Source: an uncultured Duganella sp. | GTDB lineage: Bacteria; Pseudomonadota; Gammaproteobacteria; Burkholderiales; Burkholderiaceae_D | Length of the DNA stretch: 64,000 nt | Assembly (NCBI GenBank): GCA_966112955.1 | Contig: CBHWEO010000001.1 | Span: 35,548-99,547 of the forward strand | Direction: 5' to 3' | In this document: positions 17,803-62,226 of the stretch, piece by piece | Layout of the letters: each line of letters opens with the position of its first letter | How positions within the stretch are numbered: the first letter of the stretch is position 1 | Translations under genes and position numbers: made by a program | The notes under the pieces: model-generated | The model's database searches: none | Seen by the model: the letters and a program-made list of their open reading frames with translations, nothing else | What the model was told of the DNA's origin: nothing

Positions 17803-17816
17803 ATGACTTGAATCAA
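17803..17816. promoter_or_regulatory. FNR/Anr-type box (ATGACTTGAATCAA)
   Basis: Matches WTGAY-N4-RTCAW; intergenic, upstream of 17742(-). Confidence 0.65.
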
Positions 17817-17856
17817 GTTCTCTCCCTCATCGCCCGCCTGGCCATTTGCATCCCAA

Positions 17857-17870
17857 TTGACTTGAGTCAA
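17857..17870. promoter_or_regulatory. FNR/Anr-type box (TTGACTTGAGTCAA)
   Basis: Perfect TTGAC-N4-GTCAA palindrome, 74 bp upstream of the 17938 ATG. Confidence 0.75.
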
Positions 17871-17937
17871 ATATCACTATGGCAAAGGCTGCCTGCCCCC
17901 CGTAAGCTAGTGCTATCGAGCACCTGGGAGCACGTGC

Positions 17938-19524
17938 ATGCCAATCCTGAGCCGCTTATGGCGCGTCAATGCCGCCCTGTGGGGATACCTGCTGTGGCTG
18001 GCCTGCGTGCGCCTGCACCTGTTGCGGCCCAGCGTCTCGCCCGGCCTGCGCTTTGCATCCACGCTTGAGGGCCTGGGCACCACATTCGTCAAGCTCGGCC
18101 AGGGCCTGAGCCTGCACAGCGAGCTGCTGCCGGATGACTTCATCCAGGCCCTGGGCAAGCTGCAGGAGCACGTGGCGCCATTTCCCGCCGAGCTCGCCCT
18201 GCGGGAAATCGAGCGCTCCGTCGGCCAGCCCTTGGCAGCGGCTTTTGCCGAAGTCGAACCGCGGCCGCTGGCCGCAGGTTCCATCGCCCAGGTACACAGC
18301 GCCGTACTGAAGGACGGCCGGCGCGTGATCATCAAGGTCAGGCGTCCCGGCATCCGGCGCCAGATCGAGCAGGACGTCCGCATCCTGCGCTGGTTCGTGC
18401 GCACGCTGCTGGCGGTACTGCCGCGCTTTCGGCGCCTGCTGTCGCTGGACCTGATCGACGAGCTGTCGCGCAACCTGCACCGTGAAATCGCCTTCCGCCA
18501 GGAAGTCGCGAATATTGCCTGTTTCGTCGAGTTGTTCCGCGATTCGCCCACCGTCCACGTGCCGGCGCCCGTGCCGGAACTCAGTTCGGACTGGGTGCTG
18601 GTGCAGGAAATGCGCGTCGGCCGCCGCCTCGACGATCCGGCTTCCCGCGCCGACGGCAAGCGCCTGGCGCAAAACCTGGTGGATGCCTATTTGCGGCAGA
18701 TCTTCACGGCCGGCGTATTCCATGGCGACCCGCATCCGGGCAATGTGTTCGTGCTGGAGGATGGGCGCCTGTGCCTGCATGACTTCGGCCTGGTCGGCGT
18801 ACTCGACCGCACCACACGCGCCAACCTCGCCAGCTTCATGCAGGCACTGCAGCACCAGGACGGCGAATGGCTGCTGGATGCCTGCCTTGACCTCGGTATC
18901 CTGCAAGGCCAGCTGGACCGCAATGTCTACCGTCGCAAGCTGGAAGAACTGGTGCAGGACTATGCCCGGCTGCCGCTGCGCGACTGGTCCTTCGGCCAAG
19001 CCTTCGTGCGCATCTCGCGCATGGGCCAGGGCCGCCACCTGCATTTGCCCCACAACCTGCTGGTACTGCTGCGCGCCGTGTTCCTGATGGAAAGCGCGGT
19101 GCGGATGCTCGACCCCGAGTTCAACCTGATGGAAGGCTTGTGCGCCAAGGCCGGCCAGGTGCTGTCGGCCAGCGCCGTACCGGCTTTCGACGAACTGGCC
19201 ACGCGCCTGAAGAGCGAGGCGCTGGCCTCGCTGCAGGAATTGCCGGCCACCGTCAACCGGCTGGCGCACCGCCTGCGCACCGACGGGCTGGCAATCACCT
19301 TCCACCACGCCGGGCTCGATGAAATCCACGGCGAAATGCGTCGGGCCAGCCAGCGCGTCGCCGCCGCCCTGATCGCGCTCGGCCTGTACATCGCGTCGGC
19401 CCTGGTGCTGCAACAGGATATCGGTCCGCGCCTCGGCGGCATGCCCTTGCTGGCAGCAGCCGGCTTCACCGTCGCCGCCTGGCTCACCTACCGCGTCGTG
19501 CGGGTACTGGACCGCAACCCGTGA
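17938..19524 (+). CDS. AarF/ABC1/UbiB-family atypical kinase
   Basis: LG.TFVKLGQ.LS, LAAGSIAQVH, VIIKVRRPGI, FHGDPHPGN and HDFGLVG; C-terminal TM hairpin. Confidence 0.92.
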   Translation: MPILSRLWRVNAALWGYLLWLACVRLHLLRPSVSPGLRFASTLEGLGTTFVKLGQGLSLHSELLPDDFIQALGKLQEHVAPFPAELALREIERSVGQPLAAAFAEVEPRPLAAGSIAQVHSAVLKDGRRVIIKVRRPGIRRQIEQDVRILRWFVRTLLAVLPRFRRLLSLDLIDELSRNLHREIAFRQEVANIACFVELFRDSPTVHVPAPVPELSSDWVLVQEMRVGRRLDDPASRADGKRLAQNLVDAYLRQIFTAGVFHGDPHPGNVFVLEDGRLCLHDFGLVGVLDRTTRANLASFMQALQHQDGEWLLDACLDLGILQGQLDRNVYRRKLEELVQDYARLPLRDWSFGQAFVRISRMGQGRHLHLPHNLLVLLRAVFLMESAVRMLDPEFNLMEGLCAKAGQVLSASAVPAFDELATRLKSEALASLQELPATVNRLAHRLRTDGLAITFHHAGLDEIHGEMRRASQRVAAALIALGLYIASALVLQQDIGPRLGGMPLLAAAGFTVAAWLTYRVVRVLDRNP

Positions 19525-19540
19525 ACAACAGGAGATTCCC

Positions 19541-20834: not shown

Positions 20835-21500
20835 CTAAGGCTCCTGGACCTTGGTGGCCGGCACGCTGCCCCAGCGCGGCCAGAAGCGCGGGGTGGCCGC
20901 GGCATAGCGCCGGTAAGCGTCGCCGAATGCGTGCAGCGCCTCGCCTTCCTCCTGGCGTGCCAGCAAGACGTACATCACGCACAGCACGGGGAACATCAGC
21001 AGGGTCAGCAACGTCGGCCACTGCAGCAGGAAGCCGAACATGATCAGGATGAAGGCCGCGTATTGCGGGTGGCGCATGCGTGCATACCATCCGGTGGTCG
21101 CCAGCCGGTGCGCGCGCTGCGCTTCATACAGCACCCGCCAGGCCGAAGCCAGCAGCAGGAAGCCGCCAAAGATGAACAGGTTACTCAGCAGATGGAACGG
21201 CCCCCAGTGCGGGTTGGCCTTCCAGCCCAGCAGCATTTCGAGCAGGTGGCCAGCGTCGTGCGAGAGCCAGTCGATGCCGGGAAAATACTGCTTCAGCCAT
21301 GGCAGCAGCAGGTAGATCGTCAGCGGGAAGCCGTACATCTCGGCAAACAGCGCCACCAGGAATCCCGAGAAAGCGCCAAACGAGCGCCAGTCGCGCCGGG
21401 TCCGCGGTGTATAGAAGCTGAGCGCGAACACGATGAAAATGGCCGAATTGAGAAAGGCCAGCGACCACAGGCCATATCCCGCTTGCGTAGCGTGGTTCAT
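20835..21500 (-). CDS. Isoprenylcysteine carboxyl-methyltransferase (ICMT/PEMT) family membrane protein
   Basis: [15 protein letters not shown], and EE..AL..FG..Y..Y...TPRF.P at the C-terminus. Confidence 0.88.
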
Positions 21501-21704
21501 TCACTCCTCCCTTGCCCCGTTGCGCTCGCGGCCGTGATGGTGCTTGCCGTGCCCGCGGTGCATCAACAGGTGCATCAGGGGGCAGGCCAGGAACAAGGCG
21601 TATGGCAGGAACGCCACCAGGTGGGCACGGTGTTCCGTCCACAGGAAGTATGCCGCCACCGCCAGGAATCCCCCCAGCACCAGGCGGTACGTGGTATTGC
21701 TCAT
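21501..21704 (-). CDS. DUF2933-type small membrane protein (67 aa)
   Basis: MSNTTYRLVLGGFLAVAAYFLWTEHRAHL...LACPLMHLLMHRGHGKHHHG; abuts the ICMT start. Confidence 0.85.
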   Translation of the reverse strand: MSNTTYRLVLGGFLAVAAYFLWTEHRAHLVAFLPYALFLACPLMHLLMHRGHGKHHHGRERNGAREE

Positions 21705-21773
21705 GACGTGCTCCCATGCGTTCAGGGACCAGCCCCGATGGCCCACTGTACGACCGCGCGGCGATCGCAGTCC

Positions 21774-21848: not shown

Positions 21849-23021
21849 ATGGACTCCCTTGTCATCAGCGCTACCGCCACCCCACCGTGGAACAGCCGCG
21901 CCGTCGAAATGTGCGAGCATAAGGGCATCGGCCATCCGGACAGCATTTGCGACGGCATCGCCGAAGCCGCCTCGCAAGCGCTGTGCCGCGCCTATCTCGC
22001 ACAATACGGCGCCATCCAGCACCACAATGTCGACAAGGCGCTGCTGGTGGGCGGCGAGGCCACGCCCCGCTTTGGCGGCGGCGAACTGCTGGCGCCGGCG
22101 CGCCTGATCCTGTGCGGCCGTGCCAGCGCCCTGCCGCCACCACTGCACCTTGATGAGGTGCTGGAGCAGGCCGTGCGCGATTACCTGGCGCAGCACCTGC
22201 GGCACGCCCGGGAGCTGTTCCGTATCGAGATTGCGGTACGCGCGGGCAGCCCCAACCTGCGGCAAGTGTTCGCGCGCGGCGCCGCCATCGCCAACGACAC
22301 CTCCTTCGGTGTCGGCTATGCTCCGCTGTCGCCGCTGGAGCAGGCGGTCCTGGCGCTGGCCGACGCCATGCGCATGCCGGACTTCCAGCGCGCCTTTCCC
22401 GCCGCCGGCGACGACTTCAAGATCATGGGGCGCCGCGTCGGCAGCCAGCTTGCCATGACGGTGGCACTGGCCTTTATCGACCGCCAGGTTGCCAGCAGCG
22501 ACGCCTACCAGCAGCAGAAGGAGGCGGTACGCGCGCACCTGCAGGCGCAACTGGGCAGCGACTGCCCGCTCACGCTGAATGCCCTGGACCGTTCGCAAGT
22601 GGTGACGGAGGCGGACTGCTTCCTTACGGTCACCGGTCTCAGCGCGGAACAGGGTGACGATGGCGAGGTGGGGCGCGGCAACCGCGTCAACCGCCTGATC
22701 ACGCCCAACCGCACCATGTCGCTGGAGGCGGCGGCGGGCAAGAATCCGGTGGCGCACGCCGGCAAGCTGTACAACGTATTGGCCCGGCAGATGGCCGCCG
22801 CCCTGCAGGCACGGCTGGACGGCGCCGAAGTCACGGTGCAGCTGCTGTCGGAAATCGGCGCCCCGCTCGACCAGCCACGCCTGGTGCATGTCGACGTGCG
22901 GCAGGCTGCGCCGCTCAGCCCGGCGGAACACGCAATGGTGCGTGAAGTGGTCGCGGCGCAGCTGCGGGCGCTGCCAGCCCTGTCGCAAGACATCGTGGCA
23001 GGGAAGGTCCGCCTGTTCTAA
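21849..23021 (+). CDS. mat: Methionine adenosyltransferase, archaeal-type
   Basis: VEMCEHKGIGHPDSICD, ANDTSFGVGYAP, GEVGRGNR.N.LITP.R.MSLEA.AGKNPV.H.GKLYN. Start is 21849; the upstream part of ORF 20766 is shadow. Confidence 0.88.
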   Translation: MDSLVISATATPPWNSRAVEMCEHKGIGHPDSICDGIAEAASQALCRAYLAQYGAIQHHNVDKALLVGGEATPRFGGGELLAPARLILCGRASALPPPLHLDEVLEQAVRDYLAQHLRHARELFRIEIAVRAGSPNLRQVFARGAAIANDTSFGVGYAPLSPLEQAVLALADAMRMPDFQRAFPAAGDDFKIMGRRVGSQLAMTVALAFIDRQVASSDAYQQQKEAVRAHLQAQLGSDCPLTLNALDRSQVVTEADCFLTVTGLSAEQGDDGEVGRGNRVNRLITPNRTMSLEAAAGKNPVAHAGKLYNVLARQMAAALQARLDGAEVTVQLLSEIGAPLDQPRLVHVDVRQAAPLSPAEHAMVREVVAAQLRALPALSQDIVAGKVRLF

Positions 23022-23033: not shown

Positions 23034-23720
23034 TCAGAGCAGGGGCAAGCCGCCATCCGGCAATTTGCCGGCCACGCTGTCGCCATTGGCCAGCGGCGGC
23101 AGCGGCGTTGCCTTGCGCTGGCGCGGCGCAGGCTGCGGCCGCGCCGGGCGTTGCAGGCGCAGCAGGCGGCGCCGGATTTCGTCCGAATCCATCCACAGGT
23201 CGGAGCCCTTGAGGATGCTTTTGATTTCGCGCAGGCTGAGGAAAGGCACGCACAGGCGCTCCATGAACTTGCCGAACCAGTTGGCGACCGCCACTGCCTG
23301 CGCCTGCTGGTCGCTGCCCTTGCCGGTGAAATAGCCGGAATAGCTGTGGAACAGCAGCTGGCAGTTGTCATGCACCAGCAATTCGTCGCCAGCCAGGAAG
23401 ATGAAGGCGCCCATGGAATACGCGCGCGCCTCCAGCACCGTCACCACATGGGCTGCCGACGCGCGCATATTGTTGATCAACTGCAGTCCCGTGTCGAAAT
23501 CGCCACCCGCCGTGTTCAGGTGCAGGTAAATCAGGTCGGTATCGCTGGCGGAGCGCAGCGTGTAGAACAGGTCGTTGTACCAGGCCGACGCGTCAATCAG
23601 CCCGGACAGGTAGAACGAGACCTGCCGCAACGAGGTTTGCCGCTCGAAGCGTTGCAAGCCATTGAATACCAGCGGCGCTTCGCCGTCGCCTTCGTCCGGT
23701 GCAATTTGATCTTCAGCCAT
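23034..23720 (-). CDS. ClpP/crotonase-like serine protease
   Basis: IYLHLNTAGG, AYSMG (nucleophile Ser), LLFHSY (His) and DLWMD (Asp); RBS GGGAGG. Confidence 0.8.
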   Translation of the reverse strand: MAEDQIAPDEGDGEAPLVFNGLQRFERQTSLRQVSFYLSGLIDASAWYNDLFYTLRSASDTDLIYLHLNTAGGDFDTGLQLINNMRASAAHVVTVLEARAYSMGAFIFLAGDELLVHDNCQLLFHSYSGYFTGKGSDQQAQAVAVANWFGKFMERLCVPFLSLREIKSILKGSDLWMDSDEIRRRLLRLQRPARPQPAPRQRKATPLPPLANGDSVAGKLPDGGLPLL

Positions 23721-23763
23721 GATGGCCTCCCTTCCCCACATCGTTGCGCGGCGTTGCCGAACG

Positions 23764-23798
23764 GGCTGGCGGCGGCCGATGCCGGCCGGCCGCCAGCC
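23764..23798 (-). terminator. GC-rich hairpin downstream of hsp20 (possible terminator or RNA-stabilising stem)
   Basis: GGCTGGCGGC (23764-73) and GCCGCCAGCC (23789-98) form a 10-bp inverted repeat; no U-tract. Confidence 0.35.
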
Positions 23799-23801
23799 GG
23801 T

Positions 23802-24248
23802 TCAGTTGATGGCCACGTGCTTGGACGATTTGCCGGGTTTCTTCGGCAGCGTCAATACCAGCACGCCGTCGGTGTACTTGGCTTCCACCTTGGCGTCATC
23901 GATGTCGCTGGACAGCGTGAAGCTGCGGGTCTGCTGGCCAAAATAGCGTTCCGAGCGCAGCGATTTGCCTTCCTTCTGCTCGGTTTCCCGCTTGAGTTCA
24001 GCGGTGATGGTTACCACGTTGCCTTCGACGTCGACGTCGATGTCCTCTTTCTTCACACCGGGAATTTCCGCCTTCACGGTATAGGCCGTGTCGGCCTCGG
24101 AGACGTCCATCTTGATGCGCGGCTCGACATTCCAGTCGCGCAAGGCCGGGCGCAGGCTGAAGTCCCGCATCCATTCTTCCAGGCCGTGGAAAGGTTCAAA
24201 ACGGGCGAGGTCGCTGAACGGGTCGAAACGGGTCAGGTGATTAGCCAT
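23802..24248 (-). CDS. Hsp20/alpha-crystallin small heat-shock protein
   Basis: MDV.E....YTVKAEIPGVKKEDI.V, ERYFG...RSFTL and AKY.DGVL.LTLPK. Confidence 0.95.
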   Translation of the reverse strand: MANHLTRFDPFSDLARFEPFHGLEEWMRDFSLRPALRDWNVEPRIKMDVSEADTAYTVKAEIPGVKKEDIDVDVEGNVVTITAELKRETEQKEGKSLRSERYFGQQTRSFTLSSDIDDAKVEAKYTDGVLVLTLPKKPGKSSKHVAIN

Positions 24249-24357: not shown

Positions 24358-25197
24358 TCACCAGCGGCCGGAGGCGCCGCCACCGCCGAAGCGCCCGCCG
24401 CCGCCCGCGCCATTGCCGTGCGTGCGCCCGCCCAACAGCATCCAGGGCGCGGCAACGCCCAGCAGCGCCAGTACGAAGGCAGCGGCGGCGACGGCCACGC
24501 TGACCAGAAACACACCGCTGAGCAGCCAGACGCTGAGGCCAGCCAGGCTGCCGGCAATGGCGGCACTGGCCAGGCGGCCGCACAGCGCGCGCAAGCCGCG
24601 CGCCAGCAGCAGCGCTACCACCAGGACCGCCAGCGGCGATGGCGCCAGCGCGCTGGCGGCGCGCGGCGCCACGGGCGGCGGCGGCGCCTCGCCTGCCACC
24701 AGCGCCACCATCTGCGCCGTGCCGGCATCCAGCCCGGCGAAGTAGTCGCCGCGGCGGAAGTGCGGCACCATCAGCTCGTCAATCAGGCGCCGGCTGGCGG
24801 CATCGGTCAACACCCCTTCCAGCCCGTAGCCGACCTCGATGCGCGCCGTCCGGGCGGCCGTCGCCACCAGCAGGACGGCGCCATCGTCCACCTTGGCCCG
24901 CCCCAGCTTCCATTGCTCGGCCACGCGCAAGGCGTACTGTTCGATCGGCTCGGCGCCGGTATCGGGCACCAGCAGCACGGCAAGCTGGCTGCCGCGCCGC
25001 GCCTCCAGGCCGGCCAGGCGCTGTTCCAGCACGGCCCGCTGGCCTGCGTTCAGCACCCCGCTCAGGTCCACCACGTGGCCGCTGCGCGGCGGCACCGGCA
25101 TGGCTGTGCCAGGCGCAGCTCCCACGCTTGGCAGCCACAGCAACAATGCCAGCGCCAACAGTAGCAGCAGGACTATATGCAGCGTCCTGGTTTTCAT
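24358..25197 (-). CDS. TPM-domain (YgcG-like) membrane protein
   Basis: VVDLSGVL, E.IEQYALRVAEQWKLGR...DDG..LLVA, RIEVGYGLEG.LTD; Gly-rich tail GRFGGGGASGRW. Confidence 0.9.
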   Translation of the reverse strand: MKTRTLHIVLLLLLALALLLWLPSVGAAPGTAMPVPPRSGHVVDLSGVLNAGQRAVLEQRLAGLEARRGSQLAVLLVPDTGAEPIEQYALRVAEQWKLGRAKVDDGAVLLVATAARTARIEVGYGLEGVLTDAASRRLIDELMVPHFRRGDYFAGLDAGTAQMVALVAGEAPPPPVAPRAASALAPSPLAVLVVALLLARGLRALCGRLASAAIAGSLAGLSVWLLSGVFLVSVAVAAAAFVLALLGVAAPWMLLGGRTHGNGAGGGGRFGGGGASGRW

Positions 25198-25285
25198 GAT
25201 GCCCTCCTCGCAGGCGGCGCGCCACAGCCATCCACGCCGCCAATTCCGCATGGATGGCGCGGGCCGCGCGTGTGATGGCCAGCAG

Positions 25286-26008
25286 CTAGGTCATATACTG
25301 GCCGCCATTGGCACTGAACGTGGCGCCAGTGATGTAGGCGGCATCGTCGCCCACCAGGAAGCGGACGATCCGTGCCACCTCGTCCGGCCTGCCAAGGCGC
25401 CCGACCGGAATCTGGCCGACGATACGCTGCAGGATGGCCTGGTCCATGGCACCCACCATCTCGGTCGCGATATAGCCCGGGGCGACGGCGTTGACGGTGA
25501 TACCCTTGGCCGCCGATTCCAGCGCCAGGGCCTTGGTGAACCCCAGCATTCCGGCTTTGGCGGCCGCGTAATTGGTCTGCCCCAGTTGGCCGCGCTGGCC
25601 ATTGACCGAGGAAATATTGACGATGCGGCCGAAGGCGCGCTCGCGCATGTCGCCGATAACGGCGCGGCACATGTTGAAGCAGGAGGTCAGGTCGGTCGCA
25701 ATCACGCTGTTCCATTGCTCAGGCGACATCTTGTGCAGCATGACGTCATGCGTGATGCCGGCATTGTTGACCAGGATCTCGACTGCGCCCAGCATGTCGC
25801 GCACCCGCGCGATGCCGGCCACACAGGCCGCATAATCCGACACATCCCATTGGCAGACCGGGATGCCTGTCTCGCGATGGAACGCCTCGGCCGCCGTGAA
25901 GTTGCCCTGGAACACCGCCGCCACGCGGTAACCTTCCGCTTTCAGGCGATCCGCAATCGCGGCTCCGATACCGCGCGTACCGCCTGTGACCACTGCCACC
26001 CGTCCCAT
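25286..26008 (-). CDS. phaB: Acetoacetyl-CoA reductase
   Basis: VAVVTGGTRGIG, LVNNAGIT, NISSVNGQRGQ.GQTNYAAAKAG and NGGQYM. Confidence 0.88.
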   Translation of the reverse strand: MGRVAVVTGGTRGIGAAIADRLKAEGYRVAAVFQGNFTAAEAFHRETGIPVCQWDVSDYAACVAGIARVRDMLGAVEILVNNAGITHDVMLHKMSPEQWNSVIATDLTSCFNMCRAVIGDMRERAFGRIVNISSVNGQRGQLGQTNYAAAKAGMLGFTKALALESAAKGITVNAVAPGYIATEMVGAMDQAILQRIVGQIPVGRLGRPDEVARIVRFLVGDDAAYITGATFSANGGQYMT

Positions 26009-26055
26009 ACCCGCCTCCCTGATTTCCGTCTGATGGATTTCCCCAGCCCGCCCGG

Positions 26056-26694: not shown

Positions 26695-26798
26695 CTTTGC
26701 CTCCCTTGGTCGTGGCCCATGCATCCCTTCACGATAGATAATGGAGCGGCGGCTGTCACGGGGAATGGCGGCCGCGCGCGGGAAAATCTCGGCAAAAC

Positions 26799-26812
26799 CT
26801 AATCCAGATCAA
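26799..26812. promoter_or_regulatory. Degenerate FNR-type box overlapping the ADH stop codon (TTGATCTGGATTAG on -)
   Basis: Perfect left half and CTGG spacer, 2 mismatches in the right half; 81-111 bp upstream of the nitroreductase. Confidence 0.4.
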
Positions 26813-27821: not shown

Positions 27822-27908
27822 TGTCGGTTGCTCCCTGCTGGATCCCGCCATGGCGACCACCTCCCTGTTTGCGAGGTACTACCATAACCGGCGCCCGGCG
27901 CGGCAGCC

Positions 27909-27922
27909 ATGACCTGGATCAT
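27909..27922. promoter_or_regulatory. FNR/Anr-type box (ATGACCTGGATCAT)
   Basis: Symmetric WTGAY-N4-RTCAW upstream of the ADH gene. Confidence 0.65.
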
Positions 27923-47674: not shown

Positions 47675-47683
47675 GGGGCAGGC

Positions 47684-53683: not shown

Positions 53684-53697
53684 ATGATCCAGGTCAG
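53684..53697. promoter_or_regulatory. FNR/Anr-type box (ATGATCCAGGTCAG)
   Basis: Same core as the boxes at 52027 and 62213; 79 bp upstream of the flavodoxin gene. Confidence 0.6.
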
Positions 53698-53804: not shown

Positions 53805-54626
53805 ATGACGAGACCTCCCAGCACGGTGCACGCCACCGTATGCCTCGCGGCACTGCTTGCGGCGCTTGGCGGCCACGCCCACGCTGGCGCGGCGCCCGGC
53901 TGCAAGCGCACCATCGTCGTGGCCAGCAGCCAGGTCGGGCGTGCCATGACCATCGGCCCCGACAACACCGTCCGGGGCGCCGTCAAGGATTTTCTCGACC
54001 TGGTGAGCCGGCGTACCGGTTGCACCTTCAGCTATGTCCCGGTAGCGCGCTCCCAGGCCTGGATCATGGTCGAGTGGGGCCGGGCCGATATCATGCCGGC
54101 CGCGGTGCAAAACCATGCGCGCGACCAGTTCGCGCAATTCATCCCGACACACCAGGTCAGGCCGATGCTGCTCACGCTCGACCGCAACCTGCCCGCCATC
54201 GCCACGACAACCGAGCTGTTGCAGGCCGGCCTGCGGGTCGGCGTGGTGCGCGTTTACGATTTTGGCCCGGCCTACCGCGCGCTGGTGGATGGCCTGCAGC
54301 GGCAAGGCAGGCTGCAGGCCGCCGCCGACCCGCATGCCATCGCCAGTTTGTTGCGCAACGGGCGCATCCAGGCTGCGCTCCTGCCGCCGGCCGCCTTCGC
54401 CGATGCCGGCGAAGCGCAGCAGCTGGCGCGGCGCCTGCAATGGCGCGAACTGGGCGACCTGCCGCGCGTGCCCATTGGCTTTTACCTTTCCACCACGGTC
54501 CTGGACGACGCCGACCGCGCCATCCTCCACGAAGCGATACGGCAGGCCGTGGCAGGCGATGCCTATGCCAGGGCGATGCGCCAGCACTATCCACCGTGGG
54601 CCTTGCAGGACGTCAGCGGCAATTGA
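53805..54626 (+). CDS. Stand-alone periplasmic substrate-binding (family 3-like) protein
   Basis: Signal peptide, G...DF...VS.RTGC.F, R.W.M...GRADI and GV.R.YDFG..Y. Confidence 0.75.
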   Translation: MTRPPSTVHATVCLAALLAALGGHAHAGAAPGCKRTIVVASSQVGRAMTIGPDNTVRGAVKDFLDLVSRRTGCTFSYVPVARSQAWIMVEWGRADIMPAAVQNHARDQFAQFIPTHQVRPMLLTLDRNLPAIATTTELLQAGLRVGVVRVYDFGPAYRALVDGLQRQGRLQAAADPHAIASLLRNGRIQAALLPPAAFADAGEAQQLARRLQWRELGDLPRVPIGFYLSTTVLDDADRAILHEAIRQAVAGDAYARAMRQHYPPWALQDVSGN

Positions 54627-54644: not shown

Positions 54645-55742
54645 CTAGAAGAACCACTGCAAGTGGCTGTACAGCACGTCCGGCACCCGGCCGAACTCGC
54701 TGTCCCGGCGGCCCCCGCCAAATTGCTGGAAGCCCAGCGCCCACTCCAGGTCGCTGCGCAGCGAGCACGTGATGGACGGCGACAGGTAGTGGCTGCGGTC
54801 GGACAGGTTGCGTACGGCATACAGGCTGACTTTCCAGAGCGGCGTGAGCTCGTAGCCGGCATAGACGCCCGCATAGCGGTGGCCCGGCGCCGCCGCAGCC
54901 GGTCCGCCATTGCGGAACAGTTCGGCTGACAGCGTCAGCGTATTGCCAAAGGCATAGTCGAGCCCAAGCAGCATGCGGCGGTAGCCGCGCCCGGCGGCCG
55001 GCCGCAGTTGCGCCGCTTCCGCCCGCACGCCGAAGCCGCCGAGCTGTGTCGCCAGGTCCGCGCCCAGCAGGTGGCTGTCGCCGAACTTGCCCCAGGCCAG
55101 CGAGTAATCGATGCCGCGCCCATTGCCGTGCACATGCGCTGCCGCACTGGCCTGGTGCCGCGCGTGGGCCGGCGCATACACCACGCTGAGCCGTTCCAGC
55201 GGCCCCAGCTTGTGCTCGACCAGCAGCGCGTCCACCCCGGGCCGTTCCTCGCGCTCAAGCTGGGTTGCCGCAATCGGATTCAGCACATCCAGCGGACTCC
55301 AGAAGCGCCCGGTTCCCCAGGCGATGCGCTGGCGGCCAACCTTGACGTCGGTAGCGCCATGGCGCACGGTCAGGCTGGCGCGGTACAGCCGGTGGCGGCC
55401 CTGCACGTCGCGCCGCGCCAGGTAGCGCTGCTCCGCGCGCCAGTATTGCCCGCTTGCCTGTTGCTGCTGCAAGGCGAACTGCGCGGTGTGCAGGTAACTG
55501 CCGGCCAGCAGTTCATTGTCGTACTGCAGGTCCAGGCTGGCCGCCGGCGCCAGGGGCCCCTGCAGCTTGAGGCGGGCACGGCTGACGTCCAGCAGGTAGC
55601 TGCGCTCCGGTCCGGCCAGCGTGCTGGATTGGATCGCCAGGTTCTTCAGGTAGCCGCTCAGGGACAGGTCCGGCGCCGCCTGGCCGTCTTGCGCGCAAGC
55701 CTTCGCCGCCACGACCAGCAAGGCCGCCAGCAGCCTAGCCAT
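54645..55742 (-). CDS. Putative outer-membrane beta-barrel protein
   Basis: Signal peptide, LYRASL, VKVGRQRIAWG.GRFWSP.D, RPGVDA and terminal QWFF. Confidence 0.7.
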   Translation of the reverse strand: MARLLAALLVVAAKACAQDGQAAPDLSLSGYLKNLAIQSSTLAGPERSYLLDVSRARLKLQGPLAPAASLDLQYDNELLAGSYLHTAQFALQQQQASGQYWRAEQRYLARRDVQGRHRLYRASLTVRHGATDVKVGRQRIAWGTGRFWSPLDVLNPIAATQLEREERPGVDALLVEHKLGPLERLSVVYAPAHARHQASAAAHVHGNGRGIDYSLAWGKFGDSHLLGADLATQLGGFGVRAEAAQLRPAAGRGYRRMLLGLDYAFGNTLTLSAELFRNGGPAAAAPGHRYAGVYAGYELTPLWKVSLYAVRNLSDRSHYLSPSITCSLRSDLEWALGFQQFGGGRRDSEFGRVPDVLYSHLQWFF

Positions 55743-58224
55743 GGCGGATGGCCTCGATCGGTTGCAGGCGCGCCGCCTTCCAGGCGGGGTACAGCGTGGC
55801 CAGCACACTCAGCGCCAGCAAGGCGCCGGCCGGCAGGATGGTGCTGCGCAGCGCCAGCTCGGGATAAATCATGCCGGTCAGGCCGGGGATGGTGGTGATG
55901 CCCTCGGCGTAGCGCGACATGTCGATTCCCGCGCTGTTGAAATACGCGACCACCGCGACCCCGCCCAGGAAGCCGATCAGCAGGCCGCACAGCGACAAGA
56001 CCAGGGCTTCGTACACCACGATGCGCACCACCCCGCCCGGCGCCGTGCCCAGGGCCAGCATGATGCCGAACTCACGGGTGCGCTCCAGCACCGACATCAG
56101 CAAGGTATTCATCACCCCGATCGCCACCACCGCAAACACGATGCCGACGACCAGGCGCAGGTTGAGGCGCACATAGCCGATCATCTGCGACACTTCCGGC
56201 AACAGTTCCTGCCATGGCAGGACGGCCAGGGCCGGATCCTGCCGCTCCCGCAGCGCCGCTGCCACCGCAGCCACGTCATCGCGCTCGCGCAAGCGCAGCG
56301 CCAGCGCCGACAGGCGCCCTTCGAGCCCCAGCAGCGCCTGCGCACTGGCCAGGTTCACGAAGCCATAGCCATGATCGAAGGCCGGGCTTTCCGTGGCAAA
56401 GATGGCGCCCACCCGGTAGGCGGCCGACGCCACGGTGCCATCGCGGGCCTGCGCCATCACAATGAGCTTTTCGCCCTCGCGCACCCCAAGTTCAGCCGCC
56501 AGCGCGCGGCCGATGGCCACGTCGCGCGGCCGCGCCGGTTCCAGCCAGCGCCCCTGGCGCAGCGCGCGGTCGATGGCGGTCACACGCCGCTCCTGGGCCG
56601 GGTCGATGCCTACCAGGTTGACGATCGCCGACTTGACGGCGCTGCTCACCAGCACCTGGGCCTGCACGCGCGGCGCGGCCGCCACCACCGCAGGGTGGCG
56701 GCGGGCGGCGGCCAGCGCCACGGCGTCCTGCGCCAACGAAAATTCCGGTGCCATATCGTCGCGGAAGCGCGCGTGCTGCACCTGCAGGTCGCCCGTGATG
56801 TAGCCCGTCGAATTGGTGACCAGTTGCGACAGGTAACCCTGCACGAAACTCAGCAGGAAGACAAATGCCCCCAGGCCGAAGGCGCTGGCGGAGGCGGTCA
56901 GGATGGCGCGGCGGCGGTTGCGCCCGACGCTGCGGGCGGCAATCTTCAGGAACAGCGGCAGCGGCCCGCCGCCGCCGCCGGCACGGCTGCCGCTGTCGTG
57001 GGCGCCGCCCTTGATGGCCTGCACCGGGTCCAGCCGCACCGCGCGCCAGGCCGGATACACCGCAGCCACCAGGCTGGTGCAAAAGACGATGGCGGACAGC
57101 AGCAGCAGCCGGTCGGCGCGCGCCATCGGATAGACCACCCCGGTCAGGCCTTGCATCGACTCCATGGCCTTGTCATAGTGGCTGAGGTCGATGCCCGCCT
57201 GGCCCCAGTGCCAGGTCATGCCCAGCCCGGCGCCGGCGCCGCAGGCCAGGCCCAGCACGCCCAGGATGCAAGCCTCGGCAAACACGAGCCGCGTGAGCTG
57301 CGCGCCGCTGGTGCCGAGCGCCATCATCACGCCGAATTCGCGCAAGCGCTCCATCACGCCCATCAGGACCGTGTTGGTGACCCCCACCGCCACCACGACG
57401 AACAGCACCAGCAACAGAATAATGGCCAGCACGTCGTGGAACCTGGTGGACTGCACCACCGTGGGCAGCAGCGCTTCCCAGGCCAGTCCCTCGTAGCCGG
57501 GCCCCAGCCTGGCCGCGGCACGCGCCGCCAGCGCGGCGGCCTGGCGGCGGTCCTGCAGGCGCACCACGACCGCGCTCACGCCGTGGCCGGCGGCCAGCAG
57601 GTCCTGCGCCGCGGCCAGCGGCATCAGCACCAGCGCCCCGTCCAGCATGTCCATGTGCGCATCGAAGATGCCGCGCACCCGGTAACGGCCGGCCCCCACC
57701 GCGCCATCGGCCGCCTGCGTCAACAGCACCACCTCGTCGCCCAGGCGCGCGCCAAGGATCTCGGCGGCCTTGTCGCCGATCACGATTTCCCGCGCGTCAG
57801 CCGAAGACAGGTAGCTGCCCTGCACAATCGTCCGGTGCAGCGTGGTCAGCGCCTGCTCCTGCCCGGGGTCGACTCCCATCAACATCACGCCACGCGACTT
57901 GTCGCCCAGGCTGGCGACGGCCATCGCCTCCAGGCGCTGCGCGGTGGCGACGATCCCCGCCTCGCCGGCCAGTGCCGCCAGCACCGGGCCCGGGTCGTCC
58001 ATCACCAGGTCCAGCGTCTGGTTGTCATGGTAGCCGCTGCGGTGCAGCTGCACGTGGCCCGCCACGTAACGCGTCGAGTTCTCGATCATCTGGTCGTTCA
58101 CGCCTTCGATGAACGACCACAGGAAGAACAGCGCGGCCAGCCCGACCGCCATGGCGGCAATCGTCAGCGCGGAGCGGCGCGGATTGCGGAACACGTTGCG
58201 CCAGGCGAGCCGCCACAGCATCAT
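55735..58224 (-). CDS. ABC permease with duplicated MacB/FtsX module
   Basis: Two repeats: LAWRNVFRNPRRS / ARSVGRNRRR, V.ER.REFG.M.ALGT twice, and YPAW.A.RL.P..AI twice. Confidence 0.92.
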   Translation of the reverse strand: MMLWRLAWRNVFRNPRRSALTIAAMAVGLAALFFLWSFIEGVNDQMIENSTRYVAGHVQLHRSGYHDNQTLDLVMDDPGPVLAALAGEAGIVATAQRLEAMAVASLGDKSRGVMLMGVDPGQEQALTTLHRTIVQGSYLSSADAREIVIGDKAAEILGARLGDEVVLLTQAADGAVGAGRYRVRGIFDAHMDMLDGALVLMPLAAAQDLLAAGHGVSAVVVRLQDRRQAAALAARAAARLGPGYEGLAWEALLPTVVQSTRFHDVLAIILLLVLFVVVAVGVTNTVLMGVMERLREFGVMMALGTSGAQLTRLVFAEACILGVLGLACGAGAGLGMTWHWGQAGIDLSHYDKAMESMQGLTGVVYPMARADRLLLLSAIVFCTSLVAAVYPAWRAVRLDPVQAIKGGAHDSGSRAGGGGGPLPLFLKIAARSVGRNRRRAILTASASAFGLGAFVFLLSFVQGYLSQLVTNSTGYITGDLQVQHARFRDDMAPEFSLAQDAVALAAARRHPAVVAAAPRVQAQVLVSSAVKSAIVNLVGIDPAQERRVTAIDRALRQGRWLEPARPRDVAIGRALAAELGVREGEKLIVMAQARDGTVASAAYRVGAIFATESPAFDHGYGFVNLASAQALLGLEGRLSALALRLRERDDVAAVAAALRERQDPALAVLPWQELLPEVSQMIGYVRLNLRLVVGIVFAVVAIGVMNTLLMSVLERTREFGIMLALGTAPGGVVRIVVYEALVLSLCGLLIGFLGGVAVVAYFNSAGIDMSRYAEGITTIPGLTGMIYPELALRSTILPAGALLALSVLATLYPAWKAARLQPIEAIRHG

Positions 58225-58907
58225 TGCACCTCCTGGCCGACGACCTGGCCGTCCTTCATGCGGACGATGCGTTTGGCGCGTTGCATGACCATCGGGTCAT
58301 GAGTCGAAAAGATGAACGTGGTGCCCTGCTCGGCGTTCAGCTTGCGCATCAGGTCCAACAGCGCCGCGCCGGCCACCGAATCGAGGTTGGCGGTCGGTTC
58401 GTCGGGCAGCACGATCAGTGGGTCGGCGGCAATGGCGCGCGCGACCGCCACGCGCTGTTGCTGCCCACCCGACAGTTCGCGCGGGCGGCGCTGCTCCAGC
58501 CCGTCCAGCCCCAGTTCCTTGAGCAGCCCCAGCGCACGCTGCCGGCGCTGCCGTTCCGGCACGCCCTGCAGCAGCATCACGTACTCCACGTTTTCCAGCG
58601 CCGACAGCACGGGGATCAGGTTGTATTCCTGGAACACGAAGCCGATCTTCCGCAGCCGCAGGCGCGACAGCGCGCTTTTCGACAGGCTGGTGATTTCCTG
58701 CTCGCCCAGCCAGATCCGGCCGGCGCTCGGGGTATCCAGCCCGCCGATCAGGTTCAGCAAGGTCGTCTTGCCCGAACCGGACGGCCCCACCAGCGCGACG
58801 AAATCGCCTTGCGCGATGTCCAGGTTGACGTCGCGCAGGGCATGCACGGCCACGGTCCCCTGCTGGTAGACCTTGCTGAGCGCCTGCACACGTACCAGGG
58901 CAGTCAT
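58221..58907 (-). CDS. ABC ATPase, LolD-like
   Basis: GPSGSGKT, LSGGQQQRVA, DEPTANLD and STHD. Confidence 0.93.
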   Translation of the reverse strand: MTALVRVQALSKVYQQGTVAVHALRDVNLDIAQGDFVALVGPSGSGKTTLLNLIGGLDTPSAGRIWLGEQEITSLSKSALSRLRLRKIGFVFQEYNLIPVLSALENVEYVMLLQGVPERQRRQRALGLLKELGLDGLEQRRPRELSGGQQQRVAVARAIAADPLIVLPDEPTANLDSVAGAALLDLMRKLNAEQGTTFIFSTHDPMVMQRAKRIVRMKDGQVVGQEVQ

Positions 58908-59656
58908 TTTTCCGTCTTTTTCAGGTTCCGTTCGCTGAACGTTTCAGGATCGATCGGCGCGTCGTAGCGCGCCTTGAGCAAGGTCACTACCGTACTGTGG
59001 CCAGGCCTGGACTGCGGCCGCATCTCCCAACGGGTGGGCAGCATCCGCCCGCCCATCTCGCGCACTTCCGAGAACAACAGCACGCGCACCAGCTCACCGC
59101 GTTCGCTGTAGAACGACTGGCTGATGGGCATCGCATCTTCCTTGCGCACCAGGTAGACCACCTTGCCCCAGACCACGGCCGCCTCCGGCTTCGGCGACGA
59201 CTCAATGCGGTACACCACCTTGCCTTCCACCGTTTCGCTGCCAGCGATACGGTGGTGGTAATCATTGACCGCACTGCTCTCCTTGACCAGGTCGTCGTTG
59301 GTGAAATCAGAGCCCATCCATGGCTGCAGCATCATCGAGGGCGGTACCTTGATCACCCGTTCCACACTGGGCAGGTAATTCCACATCTCGTTGCGGATGC
59401 GCAGTGAGCCGATGCCGGCCTCCTTGGCCGGTGCCGTGATGCGGATGAAGCTGTAAGCCGGGCGCTCCATCCACATGCGCATGCGCAACGTGCGCTGCCA
59501 GCGCGGCGTGGTGATCCGCATGTCGACCTCGCCCTGGATGGTCTTGCCCCACAGCAAAGATTCGACGCGTTCGACCAGGGCCGCCGCATCGTCGCCGGCA
59601 TGGGCCGGCCAGGTAGCGCATGCCAGTAGCCAGCCGAGTGCGAACTGTCGCATCAT
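58904..59656 (-). CDS. LolA-like outer-membrane lipoprotein-sorting protein
   Basis: Signal peptide, SFIRITAPAKEAG..SL, MWNYLP..ERVIK.PPSMM..PWMGSDFTNDDL and FSERNL. Confidence 0.85.
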   Translation of the reverse strand: MMRQFALGWLLACATWPAHAGDDAAALVERVESLLWGKTIQGEVDMRITTPRWQRTLRMRMWMERPAYSFIRITAPAKEAGIGSLRIRNEMWNYLPSVERVIKVPPSMMLQPWMGSDFTNDDLVKESSAVNDYHHRIAGSETVEGKVVYRIESSPKPEAAVVWGKVVYLVRKEDAMPISQSFYSERGELVRVLLFSEVREMGGRMLPTRWEMRPQSRPGHSTVVTLLKARYDAPIDPETFSERNLKKTEK

Positions 59657-59706
59657 TTCCTCCCCGCCAAACGATCATGCGCCGATCCACCGCCGCGATC
59701 AACCGC

Positions 59707-61653
59707 TCAGGCCCGCGCTTCCTGCGCGCCGGCCTTGCGGGGCAGCAGCGGCTGCACCGGCGACGCCAGCAGCGCGTCGATGGCCGCGCGTTCCAGCACT
59801 TCCTTCTCGAGCAGGGCTTGCGCCAACAAATCCAGCTGTTGGCGTCGCGCAACAAGCGTCTCGCGCACGCGCGCCTGGGCGGCAGCCAGCAAGGCCGCCA
59901 CTTCATCGTCCACCAGTTGCGCGGTGCGCTCGCTGTAGCCGCGCCGCTCCGCCCGCAGCGCGGCGTAGCCGCCCACCCCGGGCCCCTGTTCATAGGTCGC
60001 CAGGCCCAGGCGCTCGCTCATGCCGTACTGCAGCATCATGTGGCGCGCCATCTCGGTGGCCTGCTGCAGGTCGTTCTGGGCGCCGGTCGAGACATCGCCG
60101 AACACCAGCTCTTCCGCCACCCGCCCGCCGAGGAACACGTCGAGCCGGTCGAGCAGCTCTGCCTTGCGCAGCAGGAAGCGGTCTTCGGTCGGCACCTGCC
60201 GCGTATAGCCGAGCGCCGCGATGCCGCGCGGGATGATCGAAATCTTGGCCACGCGGTCGGCATGCGGCCGTGTTTCGGCAACCAGGGCATGGCCGGCCTC
60301 GTGGTAAGCCACGGTTTCCTTCTCCGTGCGGCTCATCACCCGGGTCTTCTTTTCCAGCCCGGCCAGCAAGCGGTCGATGGCGTCTTCAAAATCGCTCATC
60401 GTGACCTGTTCCTTGCGCTTGCGCCCGGCCAGCAGGGCCGCTTCGTTGACCAGGTTGGCCAGGTCGGCGCCCGCAAAGCCCGCGGTGCGCGCCGCCAGGC
60501 CTGGCACGTCGACGTCCGGCCCGGCCTTGACCACCCGCAAGTGCACTTCCAGGATGCGCTGGCGGCCGGCCAGGTCGGGCCGGTCGAGCGCAATCTGGCG
60601 GTCGAAGCGTCCTGGCCGCAGCAGGGCCGCATCCAGGATTTCCGGACGGTTGGTGGCGGCCAGCAGGATCACGCCCTTGTTGGTGTCGAAACCATCCATC
60701 TCGACCAGCAGCTGGTTCAGGGTCTGTTCCTGCTCGTTGTGACCGCCTTCCAGGCCGCCAATGCCGCGCGCCCGGCCCAGCGCATCAAGTTCGTCGATGA
60801 AGATGATGCAAGGCGCCTTCAGCACCGCCTGGGCAAACAGGTCGCGTACGCGGGCGGCGCCGACGCCGACGAACATTTCCACGAATTCGGACCCGCTGAT
60901 GGAAAAGAATGGCACGCCCGCCTCGCCGGCCACCGCCTTGGCCAGCAAGGTCTTGCCGGTGCCCGGCGCGCCGACGATCAGCACGCCTTTCGGAATCTTG
61001 CCGCCCAGGCGGCGGTAGCGCTCGGGGTTGCGCAGGAACTCGACCAGTTCCATCAACTCTTCCTTCGCCTCGTCGATGCCCGCCACGTCGGCGAAGGTCA
61101 CGCCGGTCTTGGCCGCCATGTAGACGCGCGCATGGCTCTTGCCGATGCCCAGCAGTCCTTCGCCCAGTCCGCCGCCCTTGCCCAGCAAGCGCGGCAAGCC
61201 GAACAGGACCAGCAGGGGCAGCGCCCACCACAGCAGCGAGCCGGCCCAGTTGCTGTCCTGCCGCCCCGCGTAGCGGATGCCGGCTTGCTCCAGCTCGTCC
61301 ACCAGGCCGGGATCGGCCACCCGCACCGCCACAAAAGCGCATTCCTGCCCCGGCTTGCACGCCAGTGCCGGCGTGCGGCCGGCGGGCAGCACCAGGCCCA
61401 GGGCGTCCGGCTGGGCCGTACCCCGCACCAGTTGCTCACTGAGCGTGACTTCCTTGAGCTTGCCCGCCTTCACCAGCCGCTTGAACTCGCTGTAGCTCAG
61501 CTCGTCGCCCCCTGCGCCGCCCAGCACGCCGAAGGCCAGGAAGGCCAGGAACGGCAGCAAAAGCAGCCAGAGCCACGGCCCCGGCTGGATACCCGGCTGC
61601 TTCGGCTCCTGCCCTGCGCCGGCCGGGCCGGTTTCCCCTGCATCTGGCGTCAT
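59707..61653 (-). CDS. ftsH: ATP-dependent zinc metalloprotease FtsH (paralogue)
   Basis: [49 protein letters not shown] and STGAQNDL. Confidence 0.95.
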
Positions 61654-61666
61654 CGCTGCGGGTCCG

Positions 61667-62155
61667 TCATTGCTTCGGGGCGGGTTTCTGCCCTTCGCGT
61701 TCGACCATCTGCTCCATCATCATCTGCATCATGTCCATGCGCTTTTCCATCATGTCCATGCGCTCACCAGGAGAGGGTTTGGGACCCGCTTCGCCCATCA
61801 TCGGGCAGCCCTTGGCGTCGCCCTTGTCCTTCATCATCTGGCAGTCCATCATCTGCATGGCGCCGCCCCCCGCCGGGCGCATTGCCTGCAAGCCTTCATG
61901 CATGGCTTCCATATGCTCCTGCATCAGGCGCTGGCGCTCCTGCGGGTCCTTGGTGGCCTTGATCTTGTCCATCTGGCCGATCATCTTCTTCATCTGCTCA
62001 TAGGCGGCAGCGAAACGCTTGTCCGTGGCTGCCGGCGCCGCCGCTGGCTTGGCCTGGGCCGGCTTGGCCGCCGCTTCCGGCGGGTGGTGCTTGTCGTCGG
62101 CGTAGGCGGTGCTTGCCAGCAGGGTTGCCAGCATCAGGGATAGGACGGTGCGCAT
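61667..62155 (-). CDS. Periplasmic Met/His-rich coiled-coil protein (possible Cu-binding)
   Basis: Signal peptide then DDKHH; MQEHMEAMH, MMDCQMM, CPMM and MDMMEKRMDMMQMMMEQM. Confidence 0.75.
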   Translation of the reverse strand: MRTVLSLMLATLLASTAYADDKHHPPEAAAKPAQAKPAAAPAATDKRFAAAYEQMKKMIGQMDKIKATKDPQERQRLMQEHMEAMHEGLQAMRPAGGGAMQMMDCQMMKDKGDAKGCPMMGEAGPKPSPGERMDMMEKRMDMMQMMMEQMVEREGQKPAPKQ

Positions 62156-62212
62156 GGTAGCCTCCATTGGTGTCGAATATGGCGATCGTGCCCCGCTGGC
62201 GCTCCTGGCTCC

Positions 62213-62226
62213 ATGATCCAGGTCAA
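62213..62226. promoter_or_regulatory. FNR/Anr-type box (ATGATCCAGGTCAA)
   Basis: 64 bp upstream of the 62155 start that heads the ftsH-ABC operon. Confidence 0.7.

Follow-up and report, generated by a model that had tools for sequence, protein, structure and literature searches.

FNR-type promoter boxes mark an accessory gene island of an uncultured Duganella, a likely counterpart of the Burkholderia cenocepacia low-oxygen-activated locus

The locus termed low-oxygen-activated (lxa) in Burkholderia cenocepacia, described by Sass et al. in 2013, comprises 50 genes with a 2- to 240-fold induction when oxygen is low, and the bacterium requires it to survive anoxia (PMC3721108). A TGA-N6-TCA motif occurs at 17 of its intergenic points and at four co-regulated loci (PMC3721108). 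Going by the gene table of that report, the locus encodes six universal stress proteins (USPs), an alpha-crystallin, a nitroreductase, a Zn-alcohol dehydrogenase (Zn-ADH), an acetoacetyl-CoA reductase and a polyhydroxyalkanoate (PHA) synthase, and further four ABC/outer-membrane transporter genes, an FtsH-type protease, a metal-dependent RNase, response regulators and an Anr-related regulator (PMC3721108). Its regulator has only been proposed, either as FixK downstream of FixLJ (PMC12071387) or as Anr-like proteins (PMC3759415). Here we describe a gene island of similar content, with palindromes of the FNR/Anr type in its promoters, in a 64-kb stretch of DNA (the window) from an uncultured Duganella sp., corresponding to C1:35548-99547 in an assembly of 5.76 Mb and 472 contigs.

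By Pfam annotation, the window's gene set matches lxa as listed in Table 4 of PMC3721108: it holds three USPs (of which two, USP1 and USP3, are preceded by boxes in the second of two blocks), Hsp20, a nitroreductase, a Zn-ADH, a PhaB-like reductase, a CBS protein, FtsH and a LolA-like protein with ABC/outer-membrane genes. The lxa-like content that a preliminary description had recognized from the letters alone thus agrees with that published table. The view that the region is an accessory counterpart of lxa, wired by a regulator of the FNR family, appears well supported at the level of sequence.

TTGAT-N4-ATCAA is the site of FNR, Anr and FixK. The pattern WTGAYNNNNRTCAW (WTGAY-N4-RTCAW) fits 12 14-mers of the window exactly, starting at 17803, 17857, 21774, 24332, 27909, 43562, 45293, 46582, 50965, 52027, 52052 and 62213. 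The comparison with shuffled sequence that the preliminary description had suggested gave, in dinucleotide-preserving shuffles of the window, 0.30 expected fits and a maximum of 2. Two near-fits lie at 26799 (CTAATCCAGATCAA) and 53684 (ATGATCCAGGTCAG). The spacer is CCAG or CTGG in 9 of the 14 sites, all of which have a central pyrimidine-purine (YR) step, usually within C-YR-G; one, at 52052, is a perfect consensus palindrome. A symmetrised position weight matrix (PWM) made from the 14 sites gave no further hit scoring at least 12 in the window, so that 1-17.4 kb and 28-43.4 kb are free of boxes. The box centres stand 60.5 to 128.5 bp 5' of a start codon at all 14 sites (starts with Shine-Dalgarno sequences). 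The 14 sites, the nine CCAG/CTGG spacers and the two empty stretches are as the preliminary description had given them; its range of 55-115 bp for the distance to the start was close, and gives way to the measured one.

Across the assembly, the degenerate pattern has 114 matches. The 12 in the window therefore represent 10% of the matches in 1.1% of the DNA, a density 10.5 times the genome background (Poisson P ~4e-9), and the motif is far from being equally common elsewhere, which the preliminary description had named as the outcome that would speak against a regulon. The two blocks of the window are the densest clusters of the assembly, with 7 boxes in 20 kb as against at most 3 on any other contig. 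Although the two dense blocks had been correctly recognized, they do not bound the regulon at 62226, as had been thought: a fifteenth box lies at C1:104137 (window-equivalent 68590), 4.6 kb beyond the window end and 5' of a phosphofructokinase (PFK) gene, and the regulon thus extends past 62226 and past the window. The window is best regarded as the hot spot of a regulon that spans the genome and takes in roughly 45-65 promoters.

The position of the boxes relative to promoters is equally regular. Genome-wide, 46 of 53 PWM hits scoring at least 18 were promoter-proximal; the reversed-sequence control gave 0. A TANNNT hexamer peaks 21-23 nt after strong boxes (in 19 of the 58 directions that face a gene, and hardly ever at any other offset), which places the box centre at -41.5, that is, in the class II FNR/CRP arrangement. 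In the window, 10-11 of the 14 boxes have such a phased -10-like hexamer facing a gene, 22-23 nt after the box. A promoter scan found no canonical sigma-70 -35/-10 match near the boxes, consistent with activator dependence; the terminator and sigma-70 scans gave counts near the shuffled expectation, with one useful hairpin, after the L,D-transpeptidase gene. With a spacer-unconstrained pattern, YR-centred sites outside the window were promoter-proximal in 36 of 44 cases (82%), as against 28 of 58 (48%) with other spacers, and this enrichment yields a refined consensus, TTGAY-C-YR-G-RTCAA. Functional-looking boxes genome-wide strongly prefer the central YR step, mostly CA/TG within C-YR-G, perhaps because the regulator(s) of this lineage need a particular DNA shape. 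Position, geometry and spacer are three independent lines of evidence that the boxes function. At the level of sequence, pattern and promoter position support the view taken in the preliminary description that the palindromes are sites of the CRP/FNR family, and the -41.5 phasing gives them class II geometry.

No CRP/FNR-family gene was found on contig C1, the window included, and the earlier statement that the regulator lies outside the window therefore stands. The genome encodes three such regulators elsewhere. First, C2:27998-28768 is a true FNR (NCBIfam FNR, 244 bits at a cut-off of 228), with C-X8-C-X2-C-X5-C plus a distal Cys and a VESVSR helix; its alignment with A. fischeri FNR (1e-55) includes the Cys cluster, and a boxed hemerythrin gene adjoins it. 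Second, C111:8707-9384 encodes a DNR-like protein, whose best solved relative is P. aeruginosa DNR (1.7e-40), between boxed nirK and qnorB genes. Third, a FixK-like protein with a LETVSR helix and no N-terminal Cys cluster is split over contigs C385 and C15 (C385:1561-3567 and C15:1-281). It belongs to a boxed operon with a USP and a NarL/FixJ-type response regulator, interrupted by an assembly gap across which the halves overlap in the peptide FSQMGYSSKLFNLRMTRH.

Boxes like those of the window, and phased alike, stand 5' of ccoN, nosZ, qnorB, PhaC, another USP, another Hsp20, a Cu-type ATPase and PFK, and the gene of a DUF411 protein is likewise preceded by a box. Among these targets ccoN, the hemerythrin gene beside fnr, the Cu-ATPase, PhaC, USP, Hsp20 and PFK are classic oxygen-limitation genes, and ccoN is a typical FNR target. 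USPs, P-type ATPases and the ccoN/cbb3 oxidase belong to the predicted core FNR regulon, around which 'extended' regulons change fast (PMC2908626). We consider it probable that the boxes are bound by a CRP/FNR protein of the FNR branch, most likely the Fe-S FNR of contig C2, and that they effect a coordinated switch-on at low oxygen, making the island a counterpart of lxa. The regulator that binds, oxygen as the signal and the physiological role are, in this account, what we infer.

In such a scheme, the likeliest activator, the [4Fe-4S] FNR/Anr orthologue of C2, would become active when oxygen falls and recognise the boxes through its E--SR helix. Since most boxes lie at -41.5 and are accompanied by a -10 but no -35, the activator dimer would recruit RNA polymerase directly, as class II activators do; the boxed operon of USP, response regulator and FixK-like protein may reinforce FNR as a second tier. 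As a result, about a dozen transcription units would be turned on together when oxygen is limiting. Their predicted tasks would be protein and redox protection (USPs, Hsp20, CBS protein, nitroreductase, flavodoxin-like protein), fermentative and storage metabolism (Zn-ADH and PhaB-like reductase, with PhaC and PFK outside the window), protein quality control (FtsH, ClpP/NfeD-like protease) and envelope remodelling (L,D-transpeptidase, two MacB-type ABC systems with a LolA-like protein, ICMT and perhaps the archaeal-type methionine adenosyltransferase, MAT).

Several observations weigh against control of the island by FNR and oxygen. A class II -10 is missing from boxes 17857, 26799 and 52052 and, at box 21774, from the side that faces MAT. 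No box was found by direct reading or PWM in 49613-50918, which holds the genes of USP2 and of a receiver-only response regulator; these are probably controlled otherwise than their neighbours. The E--SR recognition helix is common to the FNR, FixK-like and DNR-like proteins, and does not single out FNR. In their half-sites, spacer bias and -10 phasing, the boxes of nirK (TTGACCTAGATCAA), qnorB (ATGATCCAGGTCAA) and nosZ are like those of ccoN and the island. Because the three regulators share the helix and the denitrification genes share the box, sequence cannot separate oxygen (FNR/FixK) from nitric oxide (NO; DNR). In addition, the current proposal for lxa is FixLJ-FixK rather than an Fe-S FNR (PMC12071387), and the copper/heavy-metal resistance context in which related gene sets occur on plasmids leaves room for another physiological role.

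The alternative that fares best is one in which the FixK-like paralogue is the direct activator through a two-component relay, low oxygen being sensed by a kinase and FNR at most switching on the FixK operon. It draws on the LETVSR helix, the lack of a Cys cluster, the position of the gene after those of a USP and a NarL/FixJ-type regulator, and the box 88 bp 5' of that USP. Furthermore, B. cenocepacia has the same pairing at BCAM1483/BCAM1484 and BCAM0049/BCAM0050, both induced at low oxygen (PMC3721108), and FixK has been put forward in a review as the regulator of lxa (PMC12071387). Nevertheless, no FixL-type haem-PAS kinase was identified near the FixK-like operon, where the contig breaks off; the box of that operon (C385:1561) is without a class II -10; and a genuine FNR is present, which is 93-95% conserved in close relatives with the island. 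We therefore regard this relay as unlikely.

It seems more improbable still that the island responds mainly to NO or denitrification status, rather than to oxygen itself, through the DNR-like regulator. nirK, qnorB and nosZ are usually DNR/NnrR targets, and this regulator, with its E--SR-type helix and its closeness to P. aeruginosa DNR, is flanked by nirK and qnorB, whose boxes, like that of nosZ, are indistinguishable from those of the window. On the other hand, equivalent gene sets respond to low oxygen in the non-denitrifier B. cenocepacia (PMC3721108), and the USPs of P. aeruginosa are Anr-dependent according to work cited in that report. The same type of box precedes ccoN. All three regulators are present in the close relatives in which the island occurs; genome G016 keeps the box by its ICMT region with no close DNR-like orthologue (best 25% identity), which is weak evidence. 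In G016 (C1:5060316-5060967, L086), the ICMT orthologue lies in two overlapping frames (residues 1-68 and 63-217) with the upstream box retained, which suggests either a frameshifted pseudogene or a sequencing error.

Comparison with other genomes indicates that the island genes and their boxes stay together while their order changes. Among same-genus genomes, orthologues of MAT occur in 1 of 24, those of the LolA-like protein in 2 of 60 and those of ICMT in 5 of 60, a distribution by which the island is evidently accessory. Relative G074 has 8 boxes in a reshuffled 14-kb island with genes for ICMT, DUF2933, the 96-aa, 114-aa and 166-aa proteins, USP1, HlyD-MacB-ABC, two USP3-like proteins and Hsp20, and relative G024 has 5 boxes, beside CBS, ICMT, 96-aa, nitroreductase and USP3 genes. 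Boxes accompany island genes in relatives despite different gene order. In detail, homologues of the 96-aa protein adjoin boxes in G024 and G074, and USP3 orthologues stand behind boxes in both; the G074 orthologues of USP1 and the 114-aa protein (69% and 76% identity) stand behind two boxes, as do those of HlyD-MacB-ABC (71-84%) and, in G024, that of the CBS-pair protein (68%). DUF2933-ICMT orthologues are 65-86% identical and have the box upstream in relatives and on plasmids.

Outside the genus, ICMT (65-70% identity), ABC1, FtsH, TPM or LolA-ABC recur in the loci of MAT relatives from Pseudomonas, Nevskia, Ralstonia, Cupriavidus, Paraburkholderia and Trinickia, and several of these loci carry boxes. 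ABC1 homologues adjoin MAT in Pseudomonas, Ralstonia and Burkholderia loci, and a box lies 77-115 bp upstream of MAT on pBVIE02, in Paraburkholderia, in Trinickia and in one metagenome-assembled genome (MAG). The FtsH/LolA-like cluster is found behind a box on R. pickettii pRp12D0 as well, and is present in MAG L029. On pRp12D0 the LolA-like operon, and on pBVIE02 both MAT and the FtsH operon, have a box ~75-80 bp upstream; identity to the plasmid homologues is 64% for the LolA-like protein and 50-52% for MAT. Both plasmid loci (L103, pRp12D0 215000-262000; L104, 205000-250000 of pBVIE02, a conjugative plasmid of B. vietnamiensis G4) hold MAT, ABC1 kinase, FtsH, TPM/LemA, DUF2933-ICMT, PPK2, oleate hydratase and thymidine-phosphorylase-like genes, with LolA-ABC on pRp12D0 only. 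These sets are mixed with P-type ATPases, a multicopper oxidase, MerR/CadR regulators and RND efflux genes, their boxes being intergenic, and the pBVIE02 set adjoins integrase and Tn3 transposase genes.

We tentatively raise the possibility that a core of MAT, DUF2933-ICMT, ABC1, FtsH, TPM/LemA and the LolA-like/MacB/barrel exporter is a mobile module with its own boxes, which would use the recipient's FNR, Anr or FixK and travel on conjugative plasmids and megaplasmids together with metal resistance. If so, the module would add an undescribed arm of membrane methylation dependent on S-adenosylmethionine (SAM) and of envelope trafficking to low-oxygen persistence in Burkholderiales and Pseudomonas.

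The same plasmids could be read differently, as evidence of a metal- or envelope-stress module whose CRP/FNR-type regulator senses neither oxygen nor NO, its resemblance to lxa being compositional only. MAT, ABC1, FtsH, TPM/LemA and ICMT/DUF2933 (with LolA-ABC on pRp12D0 only) do lie amid metal-resistance genes there, and in the present genome boxes also precede the Cu-type ATPase and DUF411 genes. We think this very improbable, as the box is of the FNR-branch type and is shared by the respiratory targets ccoN, nosZ and qnorB, while the core targets of FNR themselves include heavy-metal P-type ATPases of the ccoI/fixI type (PMC2908626). Matches by chance or a repeat without regulatory function, to which only the weak box 26799, overlapping a stop codon, would lend itself, are rejected in view of the 12 matches against 0.3 expected, their exclusive location at promoters, the phased -10 hexamers and the boxes kept beside shuffled orthologues in other genomes and plasmids.

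Genes were called by third-position G+C (the genome has 67% G+C) and annotated with Pfam; boxes and genes of the two blocks and the right flank are collected in Table 1.

Table 1. FNR-type boxes and genes in block 1 (17.4-27.9 kb), block 2 (43.5-62.3 kb) and the right flank, in window positions
Feature	Position	Strand	Remarks
96-aa secreted-looking protein, no Pfam family	17452..17742	-	likely direct target of box 17803
Box ATGACTTGAATCAA	17803..17816		exact; TATCTT 22 nt after on minus strand, class II for 96-aa gene
Box TTGACTTGAGTCAA	17857..17870		exact; 54 bp from box 17803; centre 74.5 bp 5' of ABC1 ATG 17938
ABC1/UbiB-type kinase	17938-19524	+	Pfam ABC1 3e-61
428-aa protein, no Pfam family	19541-20827	+	3' of ABC1 kinase
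Small DUF2933-like membrane protein and ICMT-family membrane methyltransferase	20835..21706	-	Pfam ICMT/PEMT; small open reading frame from sequence reading
Box TTGACCTGGATCAA	21774..21787		exact; between divergent DUF2933-ICMT and MAT; TACAGT 23 nt after on minus strand; centre 74.5 bp from DUF2933 ATG, 68.5 bp from MAT ATG
Archaeal-type MAT	21849..23021	+	Pfam PF01941 9e-124
Hsp20 small heat-shock protein, then ClpP/NfeD-like protease	23034..24248	-	Pfam HSP20 9e-23, CLP_protease 3e-12
Box ATGACCTGGGTCAA	24332..24345		exact; TATGAT 22 nt after on minus strand; centre 90.5 bp from Hsp20 ATG 24248
Zn-ADH, nitroreductase, PhaB-like short-chain dehydrogenase/reductase, TPM-domain protein	24358..27860	-	likely operon; Pfam; gaps 34-105 bp
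Weak box CTAATCCAGATCAA	26799..26812		at ADH stop codon, 5' of nitroreductase gene; PWM 16.9, lowest of 14
Box ATGACCTGGATCAT	27909..27922		exact; TATGGT 22 nt after on minus strand; serves Zn-ADH
Box TTGACACAGATCAT	43562..43575		exact; TACTGT 22 nt after on plus strand; serves L,D-transpeptidase
L,D-transpeptidase (Scaffold, PG_binding, YkuD domains)	43641..45263	+	Pfam; ATG with Shine-Dalgarno, 72.5 bp from box centre
Box TTGATCTGTGTCAT	45293..45306		exact; GACACT 22 nt after on plus strand; serves USP1
USP1 (tandem type) and 114-aa protein of unknown family	45369..46557	+	Pfam Usp
Box ATGATCCATGTCAT	46582..46595		exact; CACACT 22 nt after on plus strand; serves HlyD-MacB-ABC
HlyD-type adaptor, MacB/FtsX permease, ABC ATPase	46652..49635	+	Pfam
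USP2	~50384 to 49613	-	Pfam
Receiver-only response regulator	~50503-50918	+	Pfam
Box TTGATCCAGATCAT	50965..50978		exact; CAGACT 23 nt after on plus strand; serves CBS gene
CBS-pair protein	51032..51487	+	Pfam CBS 1e-28
Small protein, weak CarboxypepD_reg-like domain	51519..51944	-	Pfam below curated cut-off; ATG 51944 with Shine-Dalgarno; target of box 52027
Box ATGATCCAGGTCAA	52027..52040		exact; TACCAT 23 nt after on minus strand
Box TTGATCCAGATCAA, perfect palindrome	52052..52065		25 bp from box 52027; 113.5 bp 5' of USP3 ATG 52172
USP3 (tandem)	52172..53011	+	Pfam Usp, 2 stretches
Flavodoxin-like protein	53126..53611	-	weak Pfam Flavodoxin_4; ATG with Shine-Dalgarno, 79.5 bp from centre of box 53684, whose class II target it is
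Near-fit box ATGATCCAGGTCAG	53684..53697		PWM 19.0; TACTGT 22 nt after on minus strand
SBP_bac_3-like periplasmic protein	53805..54626	+	weak Pfam; 114.5 bp from centre of box 53684, no class II -10 on this side
166-aa protein, FtsH, LolA-like protein, ABC ATPase, double MacB-type permease, outer-membrane barrel-like protein	54645..62155	-	six-gene operon; Pfam
Box ATGATCCAGGTCAA	62213..62226		exact; CACGAT 22 nt after on minus strand; serves FtsH/LolA operon
Dihydrolipoamide dehydrogenase (E3), last gene of window	62436..63830	-	Pfam; ends FocA-like/E1alpha/E1beta/E2/E3 string

The -10 geometry corrects some of the earlier box-gene assignments. Box 17803 goes with the small secreted protein, box 21774 with DUF2933-ICMT and not clearly with MAT, and box 53684 with the minus-strand flavodoxin-like gene, the SBP_bac_3-like gene being a possible second target. 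For box 17857, a class II-spaced -10 is absent in both directions, and the function of box 26799 is doubtful. The sole -10-like hexamer 5' of MAT is TACAAT, which ends 9 nt before the ATG (21835-21851), with no evident Shine-Dalgarno sequence. It would imply a leaderless transcript, with the box near -67; we mention this possibility without relying on it.

In block 2, a G+C-rich hairpin followed by ATTTTT occupies 45271-45288, right after the stop codon of the L,D-transpeptidase gene and 4 nt before box 45293, so that the terminator-like T-run overlaps the start of the activator site of the next promoter. The genes of USP2 and the receiver-only regulator stand head to head, with ~120 bp between their likely starts. 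Beyond the right flank (C1:99381-105344, L102), a gene for a FocA/NirC-like channel heads the E1alpha-E1beta-E2 string that ends in E3 in the window, with the boxed PFK gene divergent from it. The class II hexamer of the box at C1:104137 faces PFK, which makes membership of the 2-oxoacid dehydrogenase string in the regulon uncertain.

The 15-kb gap between the blocks is free of boxes and encodes, by Pfam, glycoside hydrolases (GH27, GH31, GH97), esterases, two LysR regulators, a tannase, LysE and a glutathione S-transferase (GST). It reads as a plant-polysaccharide utilisation cluster (27944-43711), with a GH27 alpha-galactosidase, a GH31 enzyme with PA14, GH97, a deacetylase, a SASA-type esterase and the tannase, and additionally LysR regulators, LysE, GST and MipA. 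GH43 and GH1-like genes lie directly 5' of block 1.

The regulatory logic, an FNR box at -41.5, is already textbook. What the locus adds is the extension of the lxa/Anr-type low-oxygen survival programme to another genus, some dozen candidate direct targets resolved to their promoters, and the movement of the same genes plus boxes between genomes and plasmids. Among the conserved members, some are less expected, namely the archaeal-type SAM synthetase with a membrane methyltransferase, the L,D-transpeptidase, and a pair of MacB-type exporters that come with a LolA-like carrier. They suggest that persistence in hypoxia involves a remodelling of the envelope.

The likeness to lxa (BCAM0275a-BCAM0323) is drawn from gene content and motif. 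Both are accessory clusters of tens of kb, patchy across strains and species, and both have TGA-N6-TCA at many intergenic points as well as boxed loci elsewhere in the genome. As far as the lxa gene table goes, they share USPs, Hsp20/alpha-crystallin, nitroreductase, Zn-ADH, acetoacetyl-CoA reductase, the ABC/outer-membrane set, an FtsH-type Zn protease and response regulators. There are several differences. First, the host is of another genus, with 67% G+C and with nirK, qnorB, nosZ and cbb3 genes that make it a likely denitrifier, whereas B. cenocepacia is an obligate aerobe. Second, the present island is split by the 15-kb glycoside-hydrolase cluster. Third, it contains no CRP/FNR regulator, while lxa has BCAM0287. 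Fourth, MAT, ICMT/DUF2933, ABC1, the L,D-transpeptidase and the second MacB system are absent from Table 4 of PMC3721108. The preliminary description had also counted a Lol-like exporter among the unusual members; FtsH and the ABC/outer-membrane cluster are listed for lxa (BCAM0302-0305, BCAM0309), and are therefore not unusual, whereas MAT and the L,D-transpeptidase keep that standing as far as Table 4 extends. MAT, ICMT, ABC1 and the L,D-transpeptidase share a link with boxes that recurs in several genera.

The M. tuberculosis DosR regulon, to which the preliminary description had likened the island, is parallel in content, with USPs, alpha-crystallin, nitroreductase, CBS-pair proteins, phosphofructokinase and a P-type ATPase (PMC3721108, PMC12071387). 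DosR, however, is a NarL-family regulator with another DNA motif, whereas the palindromes here belong to the CRP/FNR type. The window holds neither a DosR-type site nor a NarL regulator of full length, its only response regulator being receiver-only, and the likeness is one of analogous gene content, not of family membership. The FixLJ-FixK system of rhizobia, which has also been proposed to operate in the Burkholderia cepacia complex, uses boxes of the same type and has, as here, a cysteine-less FixK-like protein beside a FixJ/NarL-type regulator; it differs in that no FixL was identified here and that a true FNR coexists. In regulatory terms, the closest parallel is provided by P. aeruginosa Anr and E. 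coli FNR at class II promoters: the TTGAT-N4-ATCAA box is centred at -41.5, the Fe-S orthologue has C-X2-C-X5-C plus a distal Cys, the targets include USPs, cbb3 oxidase and fermentative enzymes, and there is a DNR paralogue with an indistinguishable box. Compared with these, the boxes of the present genome are distinguished by a spacer that is strongly C-YR-G and by a first base that is often A, and their targets are unusually concentrated in one island.

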